DNA of 64,000 nucleotides from an uncultured Ignavibacteria bacterium (lineage in GTDB: Bacteria > Bacteroidota > Ignavibacteria > Kapaibacteriales > Kapaibacteriaceae). This document shows positions 4,649 to 22,101 of the stretch, in pieces. The position numbers and the translations under genes are program-made. Every line of letters starts with the position of its first letter. Within the stretch, counting starts at the first letter, position 1. Location: the NCBI GenBank assembly GCA_937870915.1, contig CALMZQ010000027.1, positions 1,289-65,288 of the forward strand, in the 5' to 3' direction. The notes beneath the pieces are model-generated. The model had not been told where the DNA came from. It saw only the letters and a list, made by a program, of their open reading frames with translations, and searched no databases.

Positions 4649-5571
4649 TGTTCCGCAAACATGCGAAGTATGGGCGCACGGGCACGTTCCAGCAACCCCT
4701 GCTCGATATCGATTCTCGGTTGCAAACTCTCAAGAGCTTGATAGACGAGATCCAGCGTATTTCTCTTCATATGAGGACACTCACTACACGCACATTCCGT
4801 GATGTGTTTTGGCGGAGCCGGAGTGAGGTTTGCTGTGGGAGCAGCTCTTTGCATCTCAATAAGTATCCCGACCTCGGTAGCAACGATGAATCTCCCCTGC
4901 GAATGCTCGGCCACATACCGCAACAATTGTGAGGTAGAGCCGATCACATCGGAGACCCCAAGCACGGACTTGGCACATTCCGGATGAGCAAGGACAACTG
5001 CTGTGGGATCGAGCTCTTTTGCTCGTGATATCTGCACTGCATCAAATGCATCATGCACATCACACTGTCCGTTCCATGTAATAATGTTGCGACCGGTTCG
5101 CTCTGCAAGCCATCGTCCAAGATTCTTATCCGGACCAAAGAGAATCGATCGTTCTTTTGGGATCCGGCGAATAATGTCCTCGGCGTTACTCGATGTACAG
5201 ACGATGTCACTCATAGCCTTGACTTCAAGGCTGCTATTGATGTAGCTCACTACCTCGTGGTCGGGATGATCTGAAATGAACCTTTGATATTCCTCGGGTG
5301 GACTTTGCTCAACCAAGGAACAGCTTGCGTCCAATGTTGGCGCGAGCACAATCTTGTGAGGATTCAACAGCTTGGCAGTCTCGGCCATGAAGCGCACTCC
5401 TGCAATGAGTATCACATCGGCGTGCGATTCTTGAGCCTTGGAAGCGAGTTGCAGGCTGTCACCGATCCAGTCAGCCACCGATTGGATCTCAGCGTCCTGA
5501 TAATAGTGGGCAAGGATAACGGCGTTCTGCCGCTTCTTCAGATCAGCAATGCGGTCTTTATAGTCTGGCAT
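4645..5571 (-). CDS. nadA: Quinolinate synthase
   Basis: Full-length similarity pattern to NadA. The ORF-track start at 5580 is TTG; the first ATG is at 5571. Confidence 0.9.
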   Translation of the reverse strand: MPDYKDRIADLKKRQNAVILAHYYQDAEIQSVADWIGDSLQLASKAQESHADVILIAGVRFMAETAKLLNPHKIVLAPTLDASCSLVEQSPPEEYQRFISDHPDHEVVSYINSSLEVKAMSDIVCTSSNAEDIIRRIPKERSILFGPDKNLGRWLAERTGRNIITWNGQCDVHDAFDAVQISRAKELDPTAVVLAHPECAKSVLGVSDVIGSTSQLLRYVAEHSQGRFIVATEVGILIEMQRAAPTANLTPAPPKHITECACSECPHMKRNTLDLVYQALESLQPRIDIEQGLLERARAPILRMFAEQ

Positions 5572-5577
5572 AGACAA

Positions 5578-5585
5578 CAAATTTA
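5578..5585 (-). promoter_or_regulatory. Candidate -7 box TAAATTTG, 6 nt upstream of the nadA ATG
   Basis: Matches TAnnTTTG in the 48-nt hom-nadA spacer. Confidence 0.3.
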
Positions 5586-5628: not shown

Positions 5629-6822
5629 TCAGTCCTCCGGTAGGATGGCTATAAAGGTCTCCGGATCCAGAAATGCCGGACTCGTGTGGAGTGCGTCGAG
5701 CTGTACATGACCGATCACATATCTCCCGCTTGAACTGCGGTGGTCAACCTCCACAATGGAGAAGGGTATGCTGGTGATCTGGTCATTCGTCCCACGAACG
5801 TAGATAGCAACTTCTACATCGTGGTTCACCACCGGGGGAGAAGCCTGACCAAGCTTCTTGTATTCATAGCGGTAGCCGTATCGAAGTGCTGCGATATCCG
5901 ACAAAACAGCCGAGGCAGTTGGTCCGCCCCCTGCCCCCTTCCCAACAAGTAACTGCGCATCTGAAAATGCAGCGGTCAGGCGAACGGCATTCACCTCGTT
6001 TCGAACACCGGCTAGGGGGCTCGTGTTCTGTGTCAAGGCCGGGAGTGCAAGCAGGGACAGCCCACTACCATGCAGTTGTACCCTGGACAGGAGTTTGATG
6101 GTGCGCAATTGTTGTTGTGCTATCGATATGTCGAAAGGAGTAACGGATGTGATTCCCCTGCGCACGATCTGAAGCGGACTAACAACTACTCCAAAGGCAT
6201 GGGCTGCAATGATCGTGGTCTTGAATGCAGCATCAAAGGCTTCTACATCAAGGGTGGGATCGCTCTCGGCAAAGCCAAGTTTCTGCGCCTGAGCCAGGGC
6301 AGAGGCATAACCACCGGAAGATGGTTCGTGAAGGGCAGTGAGGATGTAATTCGTGGTACCGTTAACAATACCCTCTACGCGACTCAACATGTCGTTGTCG
6401 TAATACTCCTCAAGATTTCGGATGATGGGTATACTTCCGCATGTTGATGCCTCATACAACAACGAAGATCCCGTCTCTCGCTGAATATCGAGAAGTTCTT
6501 GGAGTCGTGTGGCAACCAGACGCTTGTTTGCCGTTACTACAGACTTGCCATTGCGCAGTGCCGTGCTTACGATGTCGAACGCAGCCTCGGCATCGTCAAT
6601 GAGTTCTACCACAACGTTGATATGTGGGTCTGTGAGAATGTCTTCCTTATGGAAGGTGAAGGACGAGGCTGGTAAGGGGCGATCCTTGAACCTGTCTTTT
6701 ACGCAGATCCTAGAGACCTCTGCCTGAAGACCGGGTGTGCGATGTAACACGTCGTAGAGTCCTTGGCCTACTACGCCAAATCCAAAAAGTCCGATGCGTT
6801 GTTTTGCTGGTGTTGTGCTCAT
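5629..6822 (-). CDS. hom: Homoserine dehydrogenase
   Basis: NAD-binding N-terminus GLFGFGVVGQG and the catalytic-domain pattern (GKGAGGGPTASAVLSDI). Start overlaps the metX stop (ATGA). Confidence 0.85.
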   Translation of the reverse strand: MSTTPAKQRIGLFGFGVVGQGLYDVLHRTPGLQAEVSRICVKDRFKDRPLPASSFTFHKEDILTDPHINVVVELIDDAEAAFDIVSTALRNGKSVVTANKRLVATRLQELLDIQRETGSSLLYEASTCGSIPIIRNLEEYYDNDMLSRVEGIVNGTTNYILTALHEPSSGGYASALAQAQKLGFAESDPTLDVEAFDAAFKTTIIAAHAFGVVVSPLQIVRRGITSVTPFDISIAQQQLRTIKLLSRVQLHGSGLSLLALPALTQNTSPLAGVRNEVNAVRLTAAFSDAQLLVGKGAGGGPTASAVLSDIAALRYGYRYEYKKLGQASPPVVNHDVEVAIYVRGTNDQITSIPFSIVEVDHRSSSGRYVIGHVQLDALHTSPAFLDPETFIAILPED

Positions 6823-7826
6823 GAGAAGATCTTTTCGTGTTGAAGAATGATGGAAAGTTTTCGTTGGTCGATCAAAAAGGCGTCATGGCCTGCTGCCGAA
6901 GTGAGTCTGCGATAACGAGAGCGTGGGATCATGTCGCTGATAAAATGTTGCTCTGCCTCCGGAAAGAGGAGATCGGAATCGATACCGACTACGATGCTGT
7001 GGGCAGTAATTGATCGCAATGCTGCACCGATGCCTCCCCTACCGCGTCCTACGTCGTGACTGTCCATAGCACGTGTGAGCGCGTGATATGCGTGAGCGTT
7101 GAAACGATGGGCTAGCTTCAGGCCTTGGTGACGTTGATACGACTCAGCATGAAAGTCCTCGATGCGTTCATCATCCTCACGTTGCCGTACGTTGTATAAC
7201 ACCGGTGTTCGATAGGAGATCATCCCAATAGCCCGTGCTGCAATGAGTCCGGCAACACCACCATCTTCTCTGTCTTCAGAAAACGTTGGGTCTGCCTCCA
7301 ACGCAAGTCTCTGCGCCGCATTAAATGCAATTGCCCACGGAGAATGTTTTGCGTTCGTTGCAATGGGAACGATGCGCTCAACAACTGTCGGCTCCAGCAG
7401 TGCCCATTCGAGCACGTGTTGTCCGCCCATCGATCCGCCAATAAGCGTGCGTATACGTGTAATGCCGAGTGCTTCACGCAGCCGAATAAATGCTCGTACC
7501 TGGTCTCGTGCAGTTACCAGCGGGAACGAACCATATAAGGGGCTACCTGTTTCCACCGAGGATGTTGGACCGGTTGAACCATAACACGATCCGATCATGT
7601 TCGCACAAACAACGAAGTGACTGTTCGTGTCGATGATGCGGCCGGGGCCCACAAGCCCGCTCCACCACGCTGCAGCATCACTATTTCCCGTGAGCGCATG
7701 GCAGATCCATATCACATTATCAGCTTCTGCATTCAATGTGCCATAGGTCTGATAGGCAACTTCAAGTGGTGATAATGAAGAGCCCCCTTCAAGAACGAAC
7801 GGGAGAGGATCGCGAAAAACGTTCAT
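6819..7826 (-). CDS. metX: Homoserine O-acetyltransferase
   Basis: Alpha/beta-hydrolase with GGSMGG nucleophile elbow and a typical MetX N-terminus from MNVFRDPLPF. The ORF extends upstream to 7901, but ATG 7826 fits homolog length. Confidence 0.85.
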   Translation of the reverse strand: MNVFRDPLPFVLEGGSSLSPLEVAYQTYGTLNAEADNVIWICHALTGNSDAAAWWSGLVGPGRIIDTNSHFVVCANMIGSCYGSTGPTSSVETGSPLYGSFPLVTARDQVRAFIRLREALGITRIRTLIGGSMGGQHVLEWALLEPTVVERIVPIATNAKHSPWAIAFNAAQRLALEADPTFSEDREDGGVAGLIAARAIGMISYRTPVLYNVRQREDDERIEDFHAESYQRHQGLKLAHRFNAHAYHALTRAMDSHDVGRGRGGIGAALRSITAHSIVVGIDSDLLFPEAEQHFISDMIPRSRYRRLTSAAGHDAFLIDQRKLSIILQHEKIFS

Positions 7827-8205
7827 CAAATACTCCGTAGATAATTGCACCAAGAAGAGCACCGAACAGGACGAGAAGAGCTGTTGGAGTTCCTGCACCA
7901 ACGTGGACGTATAGTGGTCCCGGACAAAGTCCCGTTAGTCCCCACCCTACACCAAAGAGCACACTCCCATACACCGTTCGGCTTGTGAAAGCCTTTGTAG
8001 GAATAGGAAGGGGCTCCTGGTCCCCGCGAACTTTCGTCAAGAAATACGTCGAAACGAAGGCCACAATCACGGCAGTTGAAAAGACCAAGAGGACATGAGG
8101 GTCTTGGAGGTTGAACAACCCCGCCATCCGCCGCCACGATGTAAGACCGGAGAGGATGAGCACTGTACCGAAATACAGTCCATAAAGAAATGACCGAAGG
8201 ATCAT
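7789..8205 (-). CDS. YeeE/YedE-family sulfur-compound transporter, second half-size subunit
   Basis: Four-helix hydrophobic protein starting MILRSFLYGLYFG. ATG 8205 overlaps the stop of the preceding half (ATGA). Confidence 0.7.
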   Translation of the reverse strand: MILRSFLYGLYFGTVLILSGLTSWRRMAGLFNLQDPHVLLVFSTAVIVAFVSTYFLTKVRGDQEPLPIPTKAFTSRTVYGSVLFGVGWGLTGLCPGPLYVHVGAGTPTALLVLFGALLGAIIYGVFDERFSRSSPVRS

Positions 8206-8687
8206 CGCATTCCTCCGAATCCGGCATGAAGAATGTGCGCAGTGAACAAAAACGTACCGATAGCCGTTGCGAAGAATGTGGCCGTGGCTATCAAGCTTGA
8301 CTTCTGTCGCGTGGCAATACCGGTGAGTCCATGACCACTCGTACATCCTTGCGCCAGGCGCGTTCCAAGTCCGATCAATACTCCAGACACCACAAGAATG
8401 AAGGTTCCGTTTTCCGTATTCACCCACTGCACAACGTCGCTCTCAAAATCAACGCCCAGAACCACGCGCGCAATGAGCCCGGAAGAAACGATCCCACCAA
8501 GCACGGCAAGGCTCCACACATGCCGACCCAGCGCATACCGGAAGTGTGATATGCGACGTATCGGAGGAAACAATGCACAGAGATGTTCTAGGTTTCTCGA
8601 GAGGCCAAGAGGCTTCTTCAAGAACCATAACGCAAGAGGAACAGCTAGTCCGAGGAGAATCCCGGAGAGATACCATGGCAACTGCAT
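8202..8687 (-). CDS. YeeE/YedE-family sulfur-compound transporter, first half-size subunit
   Basis: Hydrophobic protein with the conserved GCTSGHG motif. Confidence 0.75.
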   Translation of the reverse strand: MQLPWYLSGILLGLAVPLALWFLKKPLGLSRNLEHLCALFPPIRRISHFRYALGRHVWSLAVLGGIVSSGLIARVVLGVDFESDVVQWVNTENGTFILVVSGVLIGLGTRLAQGCTSGHGLTGIATRQKSSLIATATFFATAIGTFLFTAHILHAGFGGMR

Positions 8688-8730
8688 AGAGAGCTCGAAG
8701 GATGGGGATAGCTCTCTTCGTCCGTAAACG

Positions 8731-8764
8731 AAAAAACGCCATCCCCGGTGAAAGGAATGGCGTT
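8731..8764 (-). terminator. Intrinsic terminator (candidate attenuator) between the leader ORF and the YeeE/YedE genes
   Basis: On the minus-strand RNA, AACGCCAUUCC pairs with GGGAUGGCGUU (11 bp including one G-U) around an 8-nt loop. A U6 tract follows (two of these U residues close the stem). It lies 25 nt after the leader stop and about 45 nt before ATG 8687. Confidence 0.65.
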
Positions 8765-8789
8765 TTGTGTTTATTCAACGTTGCGGTTC

Positions 8790-8888
8790 TTACCCGCGCC
8801 ACTCCTCACCGGACATGTGCATACACATCATCATGCAGTTCTGCATCATGGTGGACATGTTCGTCGTGATATGGCGTTGGGCGTTCAT
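8790..8888 (-). CDS. 32-codon Met/Cys-rich leader peptide MNAQRHITTNMSTMMQNCMMMCMHMSGEEWRG (not in the ORF track)
   Basis: Hand translation of the reverse complement, ATG 8888 to TAA 8790. It has 9 Met and 2 Cys, with a promoter directly upstream and a terminator directly downstream. Confidence 0.5.
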   Translation of the reverse strand: MNAQRHITTNMSTMMQNCMMMCMHMSGEEWRG

Positions 8889-8895
8889 TGAGTTC

Positions 8896-8928
8896 CAAAC
8901 ATACGACTTTGTTCAACTCTCTTCCAAA
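8896..8928 (-). promoter_or_regulatory. Bacteroidetes-type promoter TTTG-N21-TATGTTTG
   Basis: Minus strand: TTTG at 8928-8925, a 21-nt spacer, TATGTTTG at 8903-8896. The leader ATG is 7 nt downstream. Confidence 0.5.
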
Positions 8929-8931
8929 TCT

Positions 8932-8960
8932 CTAACAATCTAACACTCTAACACTCTAAC
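8932..8960. repeat. Four CTAACnnn units at an exact 8-bp period
   Basis: CTAAC starts at 8932, 8940, 8948 and 8956. The copy at 8956 contains the dapD TAG stop (minus strand). Confidence 0.9.
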
Positions 8961-9798
8961 GCAGAGCAGATTCCAGCGCCGTCCGCGAATCCGTCTTCTC
9001 ATCACGGTACTTCACGATGAGAGGCGTGCTGATGCTCAGTCCATTGGCCTTGCCGTATTCGCTGGTGATGGCACGGGAACCTGCTACAACAACAGCACCC
9101 TCTGGTATCTCCAATGGTGCATCAGGAGTACTGCGTAGGATAGCTTCATTCACAAGATCATAGACCGGTGTGGATGCGTTCAGAATCACTCCGCTACCAA
9201 GTACAGCTCGGTTTCGGATGAGAACACCTTCATACACACCACAATTGCCCCCTATCATCACTTCGTCTTCAATGATAACCGGACGTGCACCTGCTGGTTC
9301 AAGAACTCCACCGATCTGAGCAGCAGCGCTGATATGGACTCGAGAACCGATCTGTGCACACGTACCTATTAGCGCATGTGAATCTACCATTGTCCCCTCG
9401 CCAACATAGGCGCCGATGTTGATGTAGCTTGGTGGCATACAGATCACACCATGGGCAACAAATGATCCGGTGCGAATGGTTGTTCCACCGGGTACGATGC
9501 GCACATGATCATCAATGGTAAGGGGCTTTGTAGGAAGTGTATCCTTATCGAAGAATCGGAAGTTCTCGTCAGTTGAAGCGTCTTCCATGCGCCCCTTTCG
9601 GAAGAGAACAAGGATGCCTTGTTTTACCCACATGTTCACCTGCCACGAACCATCTTCCAAACGTTGGGCTGCACGAATCTTGCCCTTGTTGAGTGAGTCC
9701 ACGAAGTCGGCACAGACCTGTGTTGCATTTTTATCATACTGAAGTTCCTGTGCCGGCATGGCGGCAAGGCGCTCAATCTCGGATTGGAGAGAGTTCAT
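8956..9798 (-). CDS. dapD: 2,3,4,5-tetrahydropyridine-2,6-dicarboxylate N-succinyltransferase
   Basis: DapD-type N-terminal domain plus left-handed hexapeptide repeats. Confidence 0.88.
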   Translation of the reverse strand: MNSLQSEIERLAAMPAQELQYDKNATQVCADFVDSLNKGKIRAAQRLEDGSWQVNMWVKQGILVLFRKGRMEDASTDENFRFFDKDTLPTKPLTIDDHVRIVPGGTTIRTGSFVAHGVICMPPSYINIGAYVGEGTMVDSHALIGTCAQIGSRVHISAAAQIGGVLEPAGARPVIIEDEVMIGGNCGVYEGVLIRNRAVLGSGVILNASTPVYDLVNEAILRSTPDAPLEIPEGAVVVAGSRAITSEYGKANGLSISTPLIVKYRDEKTDSRTALESALR

Positions 9799-10784
9799 TT
9801 CTTTCTTCCTTTCTTTGCAGATGCTGTTTTCGGGGGCACAGCTTGCTGTGCCTTTACGCCCTTTGTCTTAGGCACAGCTTGCTGTGCCTTTACATCGAAG
9901 GCGAGGTTGAGGATCTTGTAGACGAGGCGTGCTGCGGTGATATCGGGGTGGGTGACGCCCCTGACTGGGGCAAGTTCCACCACATCGAAGCCTACGATGC
10001 GACGTCCGGATGCAACAATGGCACGGATAACATCAATTGTTTCGCTGTATAGAAAGCCATCCGGTTCCGGTGTTCCTGTTGATGGCATGATCGACGGACA
10101 GAAGTGATCCACATCGAACGTGATGTAGACATCCTTTTCAAGCGTGTCTACAACACTCTTTTGCCAATGAGTGCCATGGAGCCCCCTTCGAATTGCTGAG
10201 GCATAGAAGGTTTTGATTCCATTGTTCTTGATGAACTTCGCTTCTTCGATGCACTGAGCTCTGATGCCAACCTGCGTTATGCGTTCAGTAGGAAAGAACT
10301 CGGCAACACGAGCCATAAACGATGCATGTGAATATGGCGATCCTTGATACTCATGTCGCAGATCTGAATGAGCATCGAAATGTAACACACTCATCGTTGG
10401 ATAGGCACGGTAGTGAGCAGAGATCGGCGCAGTGGATATCGTATGTTCACCACCGAGGGTCACTACAAACTTCCCCATCACAATGAGGTCCTCTACTTGG
10501 TCTTCAATGAGATCCAGCGCTGCACGGTCCACGAACTTCCCAAAGGAAAGGGGCTTCATTGTGGCAATGCCCTTCTCGAAACACAGTTCTCTATCGGTCT
10601 CGTCATCATAGAACTCTACATAGGCGCTCGCATCTAGGATCGCCTTTGGACCCTTTTCAGCACCGCCACCATAACTCACTGTGTGTTCGTATGGTGCTGA
10701 TACAATGGCAATAGCGGAGGATTCAAGCGATGAGTATCGTTCTTCAATGGCGAGGAAGTTCTTCTTTGGACCAAGGACCTTCAT
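9795..10784 (-). CDS. speB: Agmatinase / ureohydrolase-family protein with a Lys-rich repeat tail
   Basis: Arginase-family metal motifs (GGEHTIS, HFDAHSDLR, TFDVDHFCP). Extra C-terminal tail KAQQAVPKTKGVKAQQAVPPKTASAKKGRKK. Confidence 0.75.
   Translation of the reverse strand: MKVLGPKKNFLAIEERYSSLESSAIAIVSAPYEHTVSYGGGAEKGPKAILDASAYVEFYDDETDRELCFEKGIATMKPLSFGKFVDRAALDLIEDQVEDLIVMGKFVVTLGGEHTISTAPISAHYRAYPTMSVLHFDAHSDLRHEYQGSPYSHASFMARVAEFFPTERITQVGIRAQCIEEAKFIKNNGIKTFYASAIRRGLHGTHWQKSVVDTLEKDVYITFDVDHFCPSIMPSTGTPEPDGFLYSETIDVIRAIVASGRRIVGFDVVELAPVRGVTHPDITAARLVYKILNLAFDVKAQQAVPKTKGVKAQQAVPPKTASAKKGRKK
9835..9893. repeat. Two copies of the palindromic 23-mer GGCACAGCTTGCTGTGCCTTTAC, 36 bp apart
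   Basis: Copies at 9835-9857 and 9871-9893. Each holds a 7-bp stem / 4-nt loop hairpin. Both lie inside the 3' tail of the agmatinase ORF. Confidence 0.85.
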
Positions 10785-21979: not shown

Positions 21980-22009
21980 TTTGCAGATTCGGAAGCTTCC
22001 GTAGATTTG
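21980..22009 (+). promoter_or_regulatory. Bacteroidetes-type promoter TTTG-N18-TAGATTTG upstream of the tRNA
   Basis: TTTG at 21980-21983, TAGATTTG at 22002-22009. The tRNA 5' end is 11 nt downstream. Confidence 0.5.
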
Positions 22010-22019
22010 TCGCCGCCAC

Positions 22020-22101
22020 GGAGGGCTCGCATAATGGTATTGCAGCTGTCTTGAAAACAGCCGGGTTTGCGCCTGTGGGGGTTCGAGTCCCTCGCCCTCC
22101 G
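22020..22101 (+). tRNA. tRNA-Ser (anticodon UGA), class II with long variable arm
   Basis: Hand fold: 7-bp acceptor GGAGGGC/GCCCTCC, 3-bp D stem, anticodon stem GCTGT/ACAGC with loop CTTGAAA, 15-nt variable arm, T arm GGGGG-TTCGAGT-CCCTC, discriminator G. CCA is not encoded. Confidence 0.85.

Follow-up and report, generated by a model that had tools for sequence, protein, structure and literature searches.

Leader-peptide attenuation has been described, in the literature searched, for Trp, His, Leu, Thr, Phe and Ile/Val and, in a different form, for Cys; a methionine specificity is new there. The control of methionine genes is usually ascribed to S-adenosylmethionine (SAM) riboswitches, T-boxes, MetJ, MetR, SahR and SamR. 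Here we analyse a 64,000-nucleotide (nt) stretch of DNA from an uncultured Ignavibacteria bacterium (contig CALMZQ010000027.1, hereafter the window), on the minus strand of which a short open reading frame (sORF) crowded with Met and Cys codons stands ahead of an operon for two half-size YeeE/YedE proteins, MetX and Hom. This element is most likely a ribosome-mediated leader-peptide attenuator that tunes the methionine/sulfur operon to the charging of Met-tRNA and, probably, of Cys-tRNA. The evidence is comparative and thermodynamic, and from it we infer the transcription start site, the translation of the sORF, the stalling of the ribosome and the amino-acid-dependent read-through.

The window element resembles the proteobacterial trpL, hisL, leuL, thrL, pheL and ilvL leaders in its short ORF rich in codons for the end product, in its four leader segments with predicted, mutually exclusive pairings (1:2 and 3:4 versus 2:3), and in the intrinsic terminator that precedes the first gene. 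It differs from them in that the codons to be sensed are AUG, mixed with UGU/UGC, in that the mRNA is predicted to be leaderless or nearly so and to lack a Shine-Dalgarno sequence, and in that segment 1 does not contain the regulatory codons, which come between it and segment 2. Furthermore, the sensed amino acid is here also the initiator amino acid, so that a Met-codon sensor depends on the very residue it senses to initiate its own translation.

Within the Bacteroidota, a Trp leader peptide is known from the Bacteroid-trp motif (Rfam RF01692; PMC2864571), and in Flavobacterium psychrophilum leader peptides for Ile, His and aromatic amino acids are documented, those of ilvE and hisG among them, with none reported for metY-metX-hom (PMC9723704). 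These leaders share with the window element the phylum, the promoter type and an amino-acid-rich sORF in a structured 5′ region; they differ from it in sensing Trp, Ile, His and aromatic amino acids, and the window element has no sequence or Rfam similarity to them. In mycobacteria, polycysteine leaderless sORFs unmask a downstream ribosome-binding site without any terminator (Canestrari et al., bioRxiv 10.1101/834739). For Actinobacteria, a survey from 2005 predicted Cys leader peptides and found no RNA regulatory structure upstream of the methionine operons there (PMC1262725). The leaderless first cistron, the sulfur-amino-acid codons and, for the window putatively, the control of sulfur genes by stalling are features in common. 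However, the tracts there consist of Cys only, whereas the window run has eight Met to two Cys and is joined to an intrinsic terminator and antiterminator; the phyla are unrelated, no homology exists, and the leaderless status in the window is a prediction from promoter geometry. With its Met-dominated run and its intrinsic terminator, the window element falls outside the mycobacterial polycysteine class, although its mode of action would be similar.

In other Bacteroidota, a SAM-I (S-box) riboswitch takes the same position ahead of the same metX/metY genes and likewise provides negative feedback from the end of the pathway. It differs in that an RNA aptamer senses SAM directly, and this aptamer is absent from the window and from the Kapaibacterium-type loci described below. 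Rfam models gave no match to any family, SAM riboswitches and T-boxes included, at positions 7500 to 10000 of the window even at E ≤ 10, and at the gathering threshold the whole window yielded one tRNA and nothing else. Neither a SAM riboswitch nor a T-box was found in the Kapaibacterium-type loci; in loci from other Bacteroidota these models do detect SAM-I. A SAM riboswitch of a known type, named in the initial annotation as a usual controller of such genes, is thereby excluded at the leader and in its relatives. Since no Rfam family matches here and SAM-I occupies the equivalent place elsewhere, the regulators appear to have been exchanged for the same genes, which would make this a clean case in nature of one sensor taking the place of another at a constant site in the genome, with metX-hom controlled without a SAM riboswitch in one lineage of Bacteroidota.

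By those features that can be judged from sequence, the element corresponds to a leader-peptide attenuator with a new amino-acid specificity. A full-text literature search, outside which most subscription-journal papers fall, found no methionine leader-peptide attenuator; the initial annotation had remarked that a Met/Cys-sensing leader would be unusual.

The leader ORF and its flanking signals

On the minus strand of the window, dapD (9798-8956) gives way at its 3′ end to 8-bp repeats, a promoter, the sORF, a terminator and the operon. The sORF (8888-8790) opens with an ATG, has 32 codons plus a stop and translates to MNAQRHITTNMSTMMQNCMMMCMHMSGEEWRG; the coordinates and translation given for it in the initial annotation were reproduced, as was the count of eight Met and two Cys in 15 residues. 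These ten codons lie within codons 11-25 (8858-8814, minus strand), which encode MSTMMQNCMMMCMHM and form the putative sensor run. Among the ~79,000 stop-free six-frame stretches of 15 residues in the 64 kb, this is the sole one with eight Met or with ten Met plus Cys. Two small conserved hairpins are contained in the run in the RNAalifold consensus, for example AUGCAGAACUGCAU at 8846-8833.

The putatively regulated operon (5629-8687, minus strand) consists, as had been annotated, of two YeeE/YedE halves, metX and hom, all matched by Pfam and NCBIfam, with reading frames that overlap or abut. YeeE/YedE half 1 (8687-8202) is the first structural gene, its ATG at 8687 being ~40 nt past the terminator T-run; it is followed by YeeE/YedE half 2/DUF6691 (7789-8205), a half-size sulfur transporter protein, then by metX for homoserine O-acetyltransferase (7826-6819) and hom for homoserine dehydrogenase (6822-5629). 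With MetY, which some relatives have in addition, Hom and MetX make up the direct-sulfhydrylation route to homocysteine; the YeeE/YedE proteins import thiosulfate/sulfur. A Met/Cys-rich ORF thus stands at the 5′ end of a MetX/Hom/sulfur-transporter operon, and the putatively regulated genes, which serve methionine synthesis or sulfur supply, fit the amino acids that would be sensed.

Upstream of the sORF lies a Bacteroidota-type sigma-A promoter (8928-8896, minus strand), with a -33 element TTTG at 8928-8925, a 21-nt spacer, a -7 box TATGTTTG at 8903-8896 and 7 nt before the ATG, just as first described. Its two boxes have the sequence and distance known for Bacteroidota sigma-A promoters (TTTG and TAnnTTTG, ~19-21 nt apart), and the promoter type is consistent with a Bacteroidota affiliation of the DNA. 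Because the flavobacterial -7 box spans -12 to -5 (PMC9723704), which puts the start ~5 nt past the box, the start site is predicted near 8891, which would leave a 5′ untranslated region of ~3 nt and an effectively leaderless sORF mRNA. A sigma-70 promoter scan gave nothing at the leader, as is to be expected for DNA of Bacteroidota.

Past the sORF stop, an intrinsic terminator (8766-8733, minus strand) is formed by a 14-pair stem of -20.8 kcal/mol with a T6 tract at 8736-8731 and further T's at 8728-8726. It is thus placed between the sORF and the first structural gene, as in known leader-peptide attenuators. Its 5′ arm (8766-8753) is referred to as segment 3 and its 3′ arm (8746-8733) as segment 4. 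The hairpin and T-run of the initial annotation were recovered, although its distance of 25 nt from the stop holds for the GC core only; the full stem begins 23 nt past the sORF stop.

The last codons of the sORF contain segment 2 (8812-8797, minus strand; CCGGUGAGGAGUGGCG), the 5′ strand of a putative antiterminator. Its core GGAGUGGCG at 8805-8797 had been correctly located, but the pairing with the terminator is longer than the 9 bp first proposed: CCGGUGAGGAGUGGCG can pair over ~16 bp, with a 2-nt bulge, with CGCCAUUCC-UU-UCACCGG at 8762-8745, so that segment 3 and the terminator loop also serve as the antiterminator 3′ strand. The duplex between the terminator 5′ arm plus loop and the upstream leader has a calculated energy of -22.9 kcal/mol, while dinucleotide shuffles gave -11.9 ± 2.3 kcal/mol and only 1 in 2000 reached -22.9. 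When the region from the ATG to the arm was searched for the best complement of the terminator 5′ arm, it was found in the last sORF codons in 8/8 sequences tested. Segment 1 (codons 2-8, 8883-8865, minus strand) carries the core AACGCCAU at codons 4-6 (8878-8871), a recurrence of the 5′-arm sequence that had been pointed out before. Because this core is the same as that of the terminator 5′ arm, segment 1 should be able to pair either with segment 2, as an anti-antiterminator, or with segment 4; its duplex with the segment-2 region amounts to -20.2 kcal/mol in the window.

Conservation in related loci

Relatives were gathered by two MetX scans, over GTDB species genomes and JGI metagenomes, which together gave 160 loci; MetX was used as the anchor since a YeeE half retrieved just two close homologues (98% and 84%). 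A blind six-frame search for Met-rich short ORFs over these loci recovered the element in every Kapaibacterium-type locus with sufficient upstream sequence. Over the 160 metX loci, such sORFs showed a strong strand bias, with 34 on the metX strand versus 3 on the opposite one. The same layout of a promoter, an sORF of 30-39 codons, a gap of 23-29 nt and a terminator, followed by metX or metY, is shared by ten loci (L004, L006, L007, L010, L011, L012, L085, L086, L087 and L089; 11 sequences with the window), whose MetX proteins are 62-87% identical to that of the window.

The leader peptides of these loci are, in order of decreasing MetX identity, MNAQRHINTNMSTMMHSCMMMCMHMSSEEWRG in L085 (87%), MNTTRQNSVNMSTSMHSCMMMCMYMSHMEWRG in L006 (83%), MNAQRHITTTTSTMMHSCMMMCMHMSDQEWRG in L086 (78%), MTKTRSHMAPTMMSSMMCCAMCMCMHNRENGRSERL in L007 and L087 (65% and 64%; residues 3-4 differ in L087, which reads MTVP...), MQNASRHMSMSMPTHMMCAHMPMCMCMHHVEDGHLWDGA in L010 (64%), MLIITRQSVSRASVMQSCMMCMCMCMHEVEWCC in L011 (63%), and MKINNCHSFSRAAVMQSCMMCMCMHVVEWC in L012 and L089 (62%; residue 12 differs in L089, ...SRVAV...). 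The pattern [T/C]TTG-N18-21-TAnnTT[T/C]G-N6-9-ATG is common to all relatives, the -7 box of L086 being two bases off (TATGTTGC). It is this conserved position that gives the promoter its weight, not the match itself. The terminator is present in all ten related loci as well, with energies from -17.6 to -24.9 kcal/mol. Thus the ORF, the promoter geometry, the terminator and the antiterminator, for which loss in relatives had been named as a possible refutation, are all retained.

At the nucleotide level the leader equals or exceeds the surrounding genes in conservation. Between L086 and the window, the leader ORF is 90% and the stretch from stop to T-run 95% identical, compared with 71-76% for dapD, metX and hom; between L011 and the window, the stop-to-T-run stretch is 90% identical and the genes 64-73%.

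The leader is followed by metX-hom in L006, L007, L085, L086 and L087, and by metY-metX-hom in L010, L011, L012 and L089, MetY being O-acetylhomoserine sulfhydrylase. The order yeeE-yeeE-metX-hom occurs in the window's own lineage only, and the YeeE pair therefore seems to be a recent insertion into an existing attenuator-controlled operon. In the closest relatives, for example L086, metX comes directly after the same leader and start-proximal hairpin, without a YeeE pair.

It had been considered that the hairpin might simply be the dapD terminator. In L085, the promoter-leader-terminator unit comes after two unrelated small ORFs instead of dapD and is still ahead of metX, so the unit belongs with the met genes. 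Together with the conserved promoter between dapD and the sORF, this arrangement rules out a plain dapD terminator as a complete explanation.

The comparison of the 11 sequences also separates what is kept as codons from what is kept as RNA. An open frame of 30-39 codons has been maintained in five diverged lineages, with all indels being multiples of three. Cys is written as UGU/UGC and His as CAC/CAU with synonymous variation among the relatives, and outside the Met/Cys run the peptide drifts, with both synonymous and non-synonymous changes among close relatives. What is kept in the sORF is an unbroken frame, a start codon at the same place and a high density of AUG/UGY codons, and the Met/Cys run itself is conserved by composition rather than by exact order. 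By contrast, the nine-base pairing core of segment 2 starts on the third base of a codon in the window and on the first in L007; segment 2 is therefore conserved as RNA, and the Met/Cys run as codons.

The MAFFT alignment puts segment 2 out of register in L007, L087 and L010, and the 2:3 pairing was therefore tested for covariation by a duplex search in each sequence and by a swap matrix, and not by alignment columns. It covaries in three lineages, the partners being GGAGUGGCG with CGCCAUUCC in the window, GAGAAUGGC with GCCAUUCUC in L007, and GGAAGAUGG with CCAUCUUCC in L010. In the swap matrix, the upstream regions of L007 and L010 favour their own arm over swapped ones by 3-7 kcal/mol, and window-type upstream regions are likewise 3-7 kcal/mol better with a window-type arm than with those of the L007, L087 or L010 type.

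These observations bear on two other explanations. An RNA-only sensor, such as a new SAM or Met riboswitch or a binding site for a protein or tRNA, in which the ORF would be incidental, could account for the very high noncoding-level conservation, for the fold z-score of -5.1 and for the occurrence of SAM riboswitches before the same genes in relatives. We nevertheless regard it as highly improbable, considering that five diverged lineages have all preserved the reading frame, their indels being of three and their AUG at a fixed 6-9 nt from the -7 box, that the composition of Met/Cys codons and not the sequence order is conserved, that Rfam has no match even at the permissive cut-off used above, and that no conserved multi-helix junction is seen beyond the attenuator helices.

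Very little probability is likewise left for a functional micropeptide rich in Met, Cys and His, acting as a binder of Cu(I) or another metal or as a redox peptide, with the hairpin as a plain terminator and a separate promoter for the operon. Cys, Met and His residues can bind soft metals, the motif ...CM(M/C)MCMH... is invariant in places, and the hairpin is competent as a stand-alone terminator. Yet the peptide drifts freely outside the run, its C-terminal part is kept as RNA in a shifted frame, and the end of the sORF covaries with the terminator arm to which it can pair. Moreover, the stretch from the terminator to the yeeE ATG contains no TAnnTTTG box, the unit invariably stands ahead of metX or metY, also where another gene lies upstream, and unrelated Cys/Met-tailed sORFs are found at the equivalent place in other Bacteroidota (see the last section).

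The attenuator reading is further favoured by a conserved spacing. Counted from its first base, the last regulatory Met codon is 11-12 nt away from the segment-2 core in 11/11 sequences (11 in the window), while over the same sequences sORF lengths range over 30-39 codons and the stop follows segment 2 at a distance of 2-20 nt. In bacteria, the ribosome reaches at its 3′ edge ~12 nt beyond the first A-site base. A gap of 11-12 nt is what one would expect if the run were packed as near to segment 2 as a stalled ribosome permits.

The leader family is nearly invisible to protein databases, since an exact look-up of seven leader peptides in a protein collection found that only one of them (1/7) had ever been called as a gene. 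A phmmer search of the 32-residue peptide against 1.84 billion representatives had as its sole match a repetitive Met/Cys-rich protein of 839 residues, which is a low-complexity hit and uninformative. The layout could serve as a rule by which to annotate sORFs that gene lists miss ahead of met genes.

Alternative folds and a model of attenuation

In the RNAalifold consensus of the 11-sequence alignment, the leader forms the 1:2 pairing, the terminator and the two small hairpins of the run, with compensatory changes in seven pairs; the CG pairs of the 1:2 core are present in 11/11 sequences. Folding of the full untranslated leader gave the 1:2 + 3:4 state as the minimum-energy state in 7/8 sequences. 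We have also folded the leader with the ribosome footprint masked. A ribosome at the stop codon results in the terminator fold, whereas one stalled with its A site at codons 14-21 results in the antiterminator fold, which is the alternation that the initial annotation had proposed. Its claim of ribosome-mediated attenuation is thus supported by these masked-footprint folds together with the conservation, the absence of Rfam matches and the context in L085.

From these data the following course of events can be proposed. Transcription would begin ~3 nt ahead of the AUG of the 32-codon sORF. When Met and Cys are ample, the ribosome would pass the ten Met/Cys codons in codons 11-25 and reach the final codons, that is, segment 2; with segment 2 covered, the 3:4 terminator would form and the polymerase would halt at the T-run 40 nt before yeeE. 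When Met-tRNA or Cys-tRNA is scarce, the ribosome would stall in the run with its 3′ edge just short of segment 2, as the conserved gap of 11-12 nt implies. The free segment 2 would then capture segment 3 and the terminator loop in the ~16-bp antiterminator, and transcription would proceed into yeeE-yeeE-metX-hom. With Met codons as the main and Cys codons as the secondary sensor, the mixture would report a general shortage of sulfur amino acids. In the relatives, RNA that is not being translated would have segment 1 paired with segment 2, the classical 1:2 + 3:4 arrangement. The untranslated RNA of the window has a slight preference for the 2:3 + 1:4 state instead, that is, the antiterminator, and failed initiation for lack of fMet-tRNA under severe Met starvation would therefore open the operon as well. 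If this model is true, the leader would be a compact ~200-nt Met/Cys-responsive part for Bacteroidota genetics.

Several points weigh against this model. All members of the leader family come from metagenome-assembled genomes. The promoter motif TTTG-N19-21-TANNTTTG has one match in the window where ~0.32 would be expected by chance, and alone is not significant. In the calculated folds of the untranslated window leader, the 2:3 + 1:4 state (-58.9 kcal/mol) is 2.8 kcal/mol better than the terminator state (-56.1 kcal/mol), so the window is predicted to have another basal state than its relatives, and this prediction depends on small differences in energy. Under a conservative mask, a ribosome stalled at codon 23 or 25, the last two Met codons, still yields the terminator. 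The swap test for the 1:2 pairing did not discriminate between cognate and swapped pairs, as the GCCA/UGGC cores are shared. Although L007, L087 and L010 also have the antiterminator pairing expected of a leader-peptide attenuator, their stop lies 16-20 nt beyond segment 2, and a ribosome at the stop codon would not cover segment 2 there. Finally, Met limitation also impairs initiation, which makes the behaviour in real starvation uncertain.

In addition to the attenuator helices, a hairpin AGAGAGCU...AGCUCUCU (8688-8717, minus strand) adjoins the yeeE start codon. In the read-through RNA (window 8688-8746), its 5′ arm and loop (8712-8704) can pair with segment 4 and the U-run. The same start-proximal hairpin with another loop is present in L086, and a different hairpin in L006, L085, L010, L011 and L012, the 3′ arm of which carries GGAG 5-6 nt before the ATG of the first gene. 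The start-proximal hairpin may add translational control and couple the antiterminated state to initiation. One could thus imagine that the sORF senses Met/Cys by stalling and that the main output is Rho-dependent polarity or translational control through this hairpin. In favour of such an output, a hairpin in most relatives borders or masks the region where the first gene starts, or its GGAG, and in the window it competes with the segment 4 pairing; the mycobacterial sORFs, which unmask a ribosome-binding site, offer a precedent (bioRxiv 10.1101/834739). As the main output we consider it unlikely, because the strong conserved hairpin, its U-run and the covarying antiterminator are precisely the requirements of intrinsic attenuation. 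The two outputs are compatible and can coexist.

SAM-I aptamers with Cys/Met-tailed ORFs and other observations

A hidden Markov model built from ten Rfam-confirmed SAM-I aptamers was run on the 160 loci. It placed a SAM-I aptamer on the metX strand in 108/160 of them, none of which is of the Kapaibacterium type. When 93 distinct aptamer loci were considered, the structural gene came directly after the aptamer in 31, and in 60 an ATG within ≤25 nt opened an sORF of 12-99 codons. At least three Cys plus Met residues in the last eight codons were found in 41/60 of these aptamer-adjacent sORFs versus 1.8% of control sORFs from the same loci. In many Bacteroidota (within L013-L164), 6-18 nt separate the SAM-I aptamer upstream of metY/metX from the ATG of an sORF of 19-45 codons, the last of which form Cys and/or Met runs; examples are L021 (4226-4496), L024 (5550-5772), L058 (4395-4593), L041 and L106, and the tails include ...RCCCCCC, ...MMNSKMCCCCCC, ...CCCMCMCMQVM, ...YMCMCCCC and ...MPLMPMCMCR. 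A combined riboswitch and leader-peptide design was not found described in the literature searched.

Some Bacteroidales-like loci have a Met/Cys sORF before metY-metX, namely L136 (1106-1174), L137 (2358-2426), L162 (2191-2268) and L135 (1336-1443 and 1527-1631). No SAM aptamer was detected in L135, L136 and L162 by Rfam, nor in L137, where nhmmer alone was used. The sORFs of L136, L137 and L162 are homologous and of the MPLMPMCMCR type; sequences in this group are exemplified by M..HLTHHNFIMPLMPMCMCR and MKVLTNNKYQMMMTMCCCMMMSCNTKARCCLRMC. L135 has two tandem Met/Cys sORFs, and a hairpin with a T-run comes after each of them.

A SAM-I aptamer and a Cys/Met sORF may therefore be combined in one leader, a design that is possibly widespread in the phylum. 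We regard it as a serious though still tentative possibility that the window element is the stand-alone form of such a phylum-wide, undescribed riboswitch-plus-sORF device, of which the Kapaibacterium-type loci and L136, L162 and L135 have kept only the sORF arm. If so, SAM would gate translation of the sORF through the aptamer and the charging of Met/Cys-tRNA would act through stalling, placing two signals in one leader; and the default-open untranslated fold of the window would give read-through when Met is too scarce to initiate.

The origin of the DNA was also checked. An identical GenBank contig, DATGWS010000297.1 (L001 and L005), is labelled Candidatus Didemnitutus (Verrucomicrobiota). 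A verrucomicrobial origin is ruled out, since all syntenic relatives found with MetX are Kapaibacterium/Ignavibacteria-like (Bacteroidota, FCB group), and that entry is probably a mis-binned or mis-labelled contig of a metagenome-assembled genome.

Two further promoter-like boxes occur in the window. One is a TAnnTTTG box 6 nt ahead of the nadA ATG (5571-5585), from which nadA-nadB is predicted to have a promoter of its own and a leaderless mRNA; the other is a TTTG-N18-TAGATTTG promoter 10 nt ahead of a tRNA gene (21981-22020). Both support Bacteroidota-type promoters and leaderless mRNAs in the window organism.

A second Met-rich ORF, at 2057-2293 on the minus strand (MSPLQMGMMMV...), has none of the attenuator features and is overlapped by a long ORF on the opposite strand, and it was set aside. 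It adjoins the start of a 216-residue ORF at 2060-1410, and L005 has it too.

Four tandem 8-bp units (GTTAGAGT-like, 8930-8960) immediately precede the -33 element in the window. Near-identical relatives have a different 8-mer at this place, GTGCTAAT in L002 and TGTGCTAA/TGTGTTAT-like units in L006. Every unit contains TAG or TAA, so that stops arise in all three frames, and the tandem 8-mers could be a three-frame stop barrier or an operator. The repeats, which also lie upstream of the leader promoter in L002, L006 and L085, accompany the promoter-leader unit and not dapD, as L085 shows.

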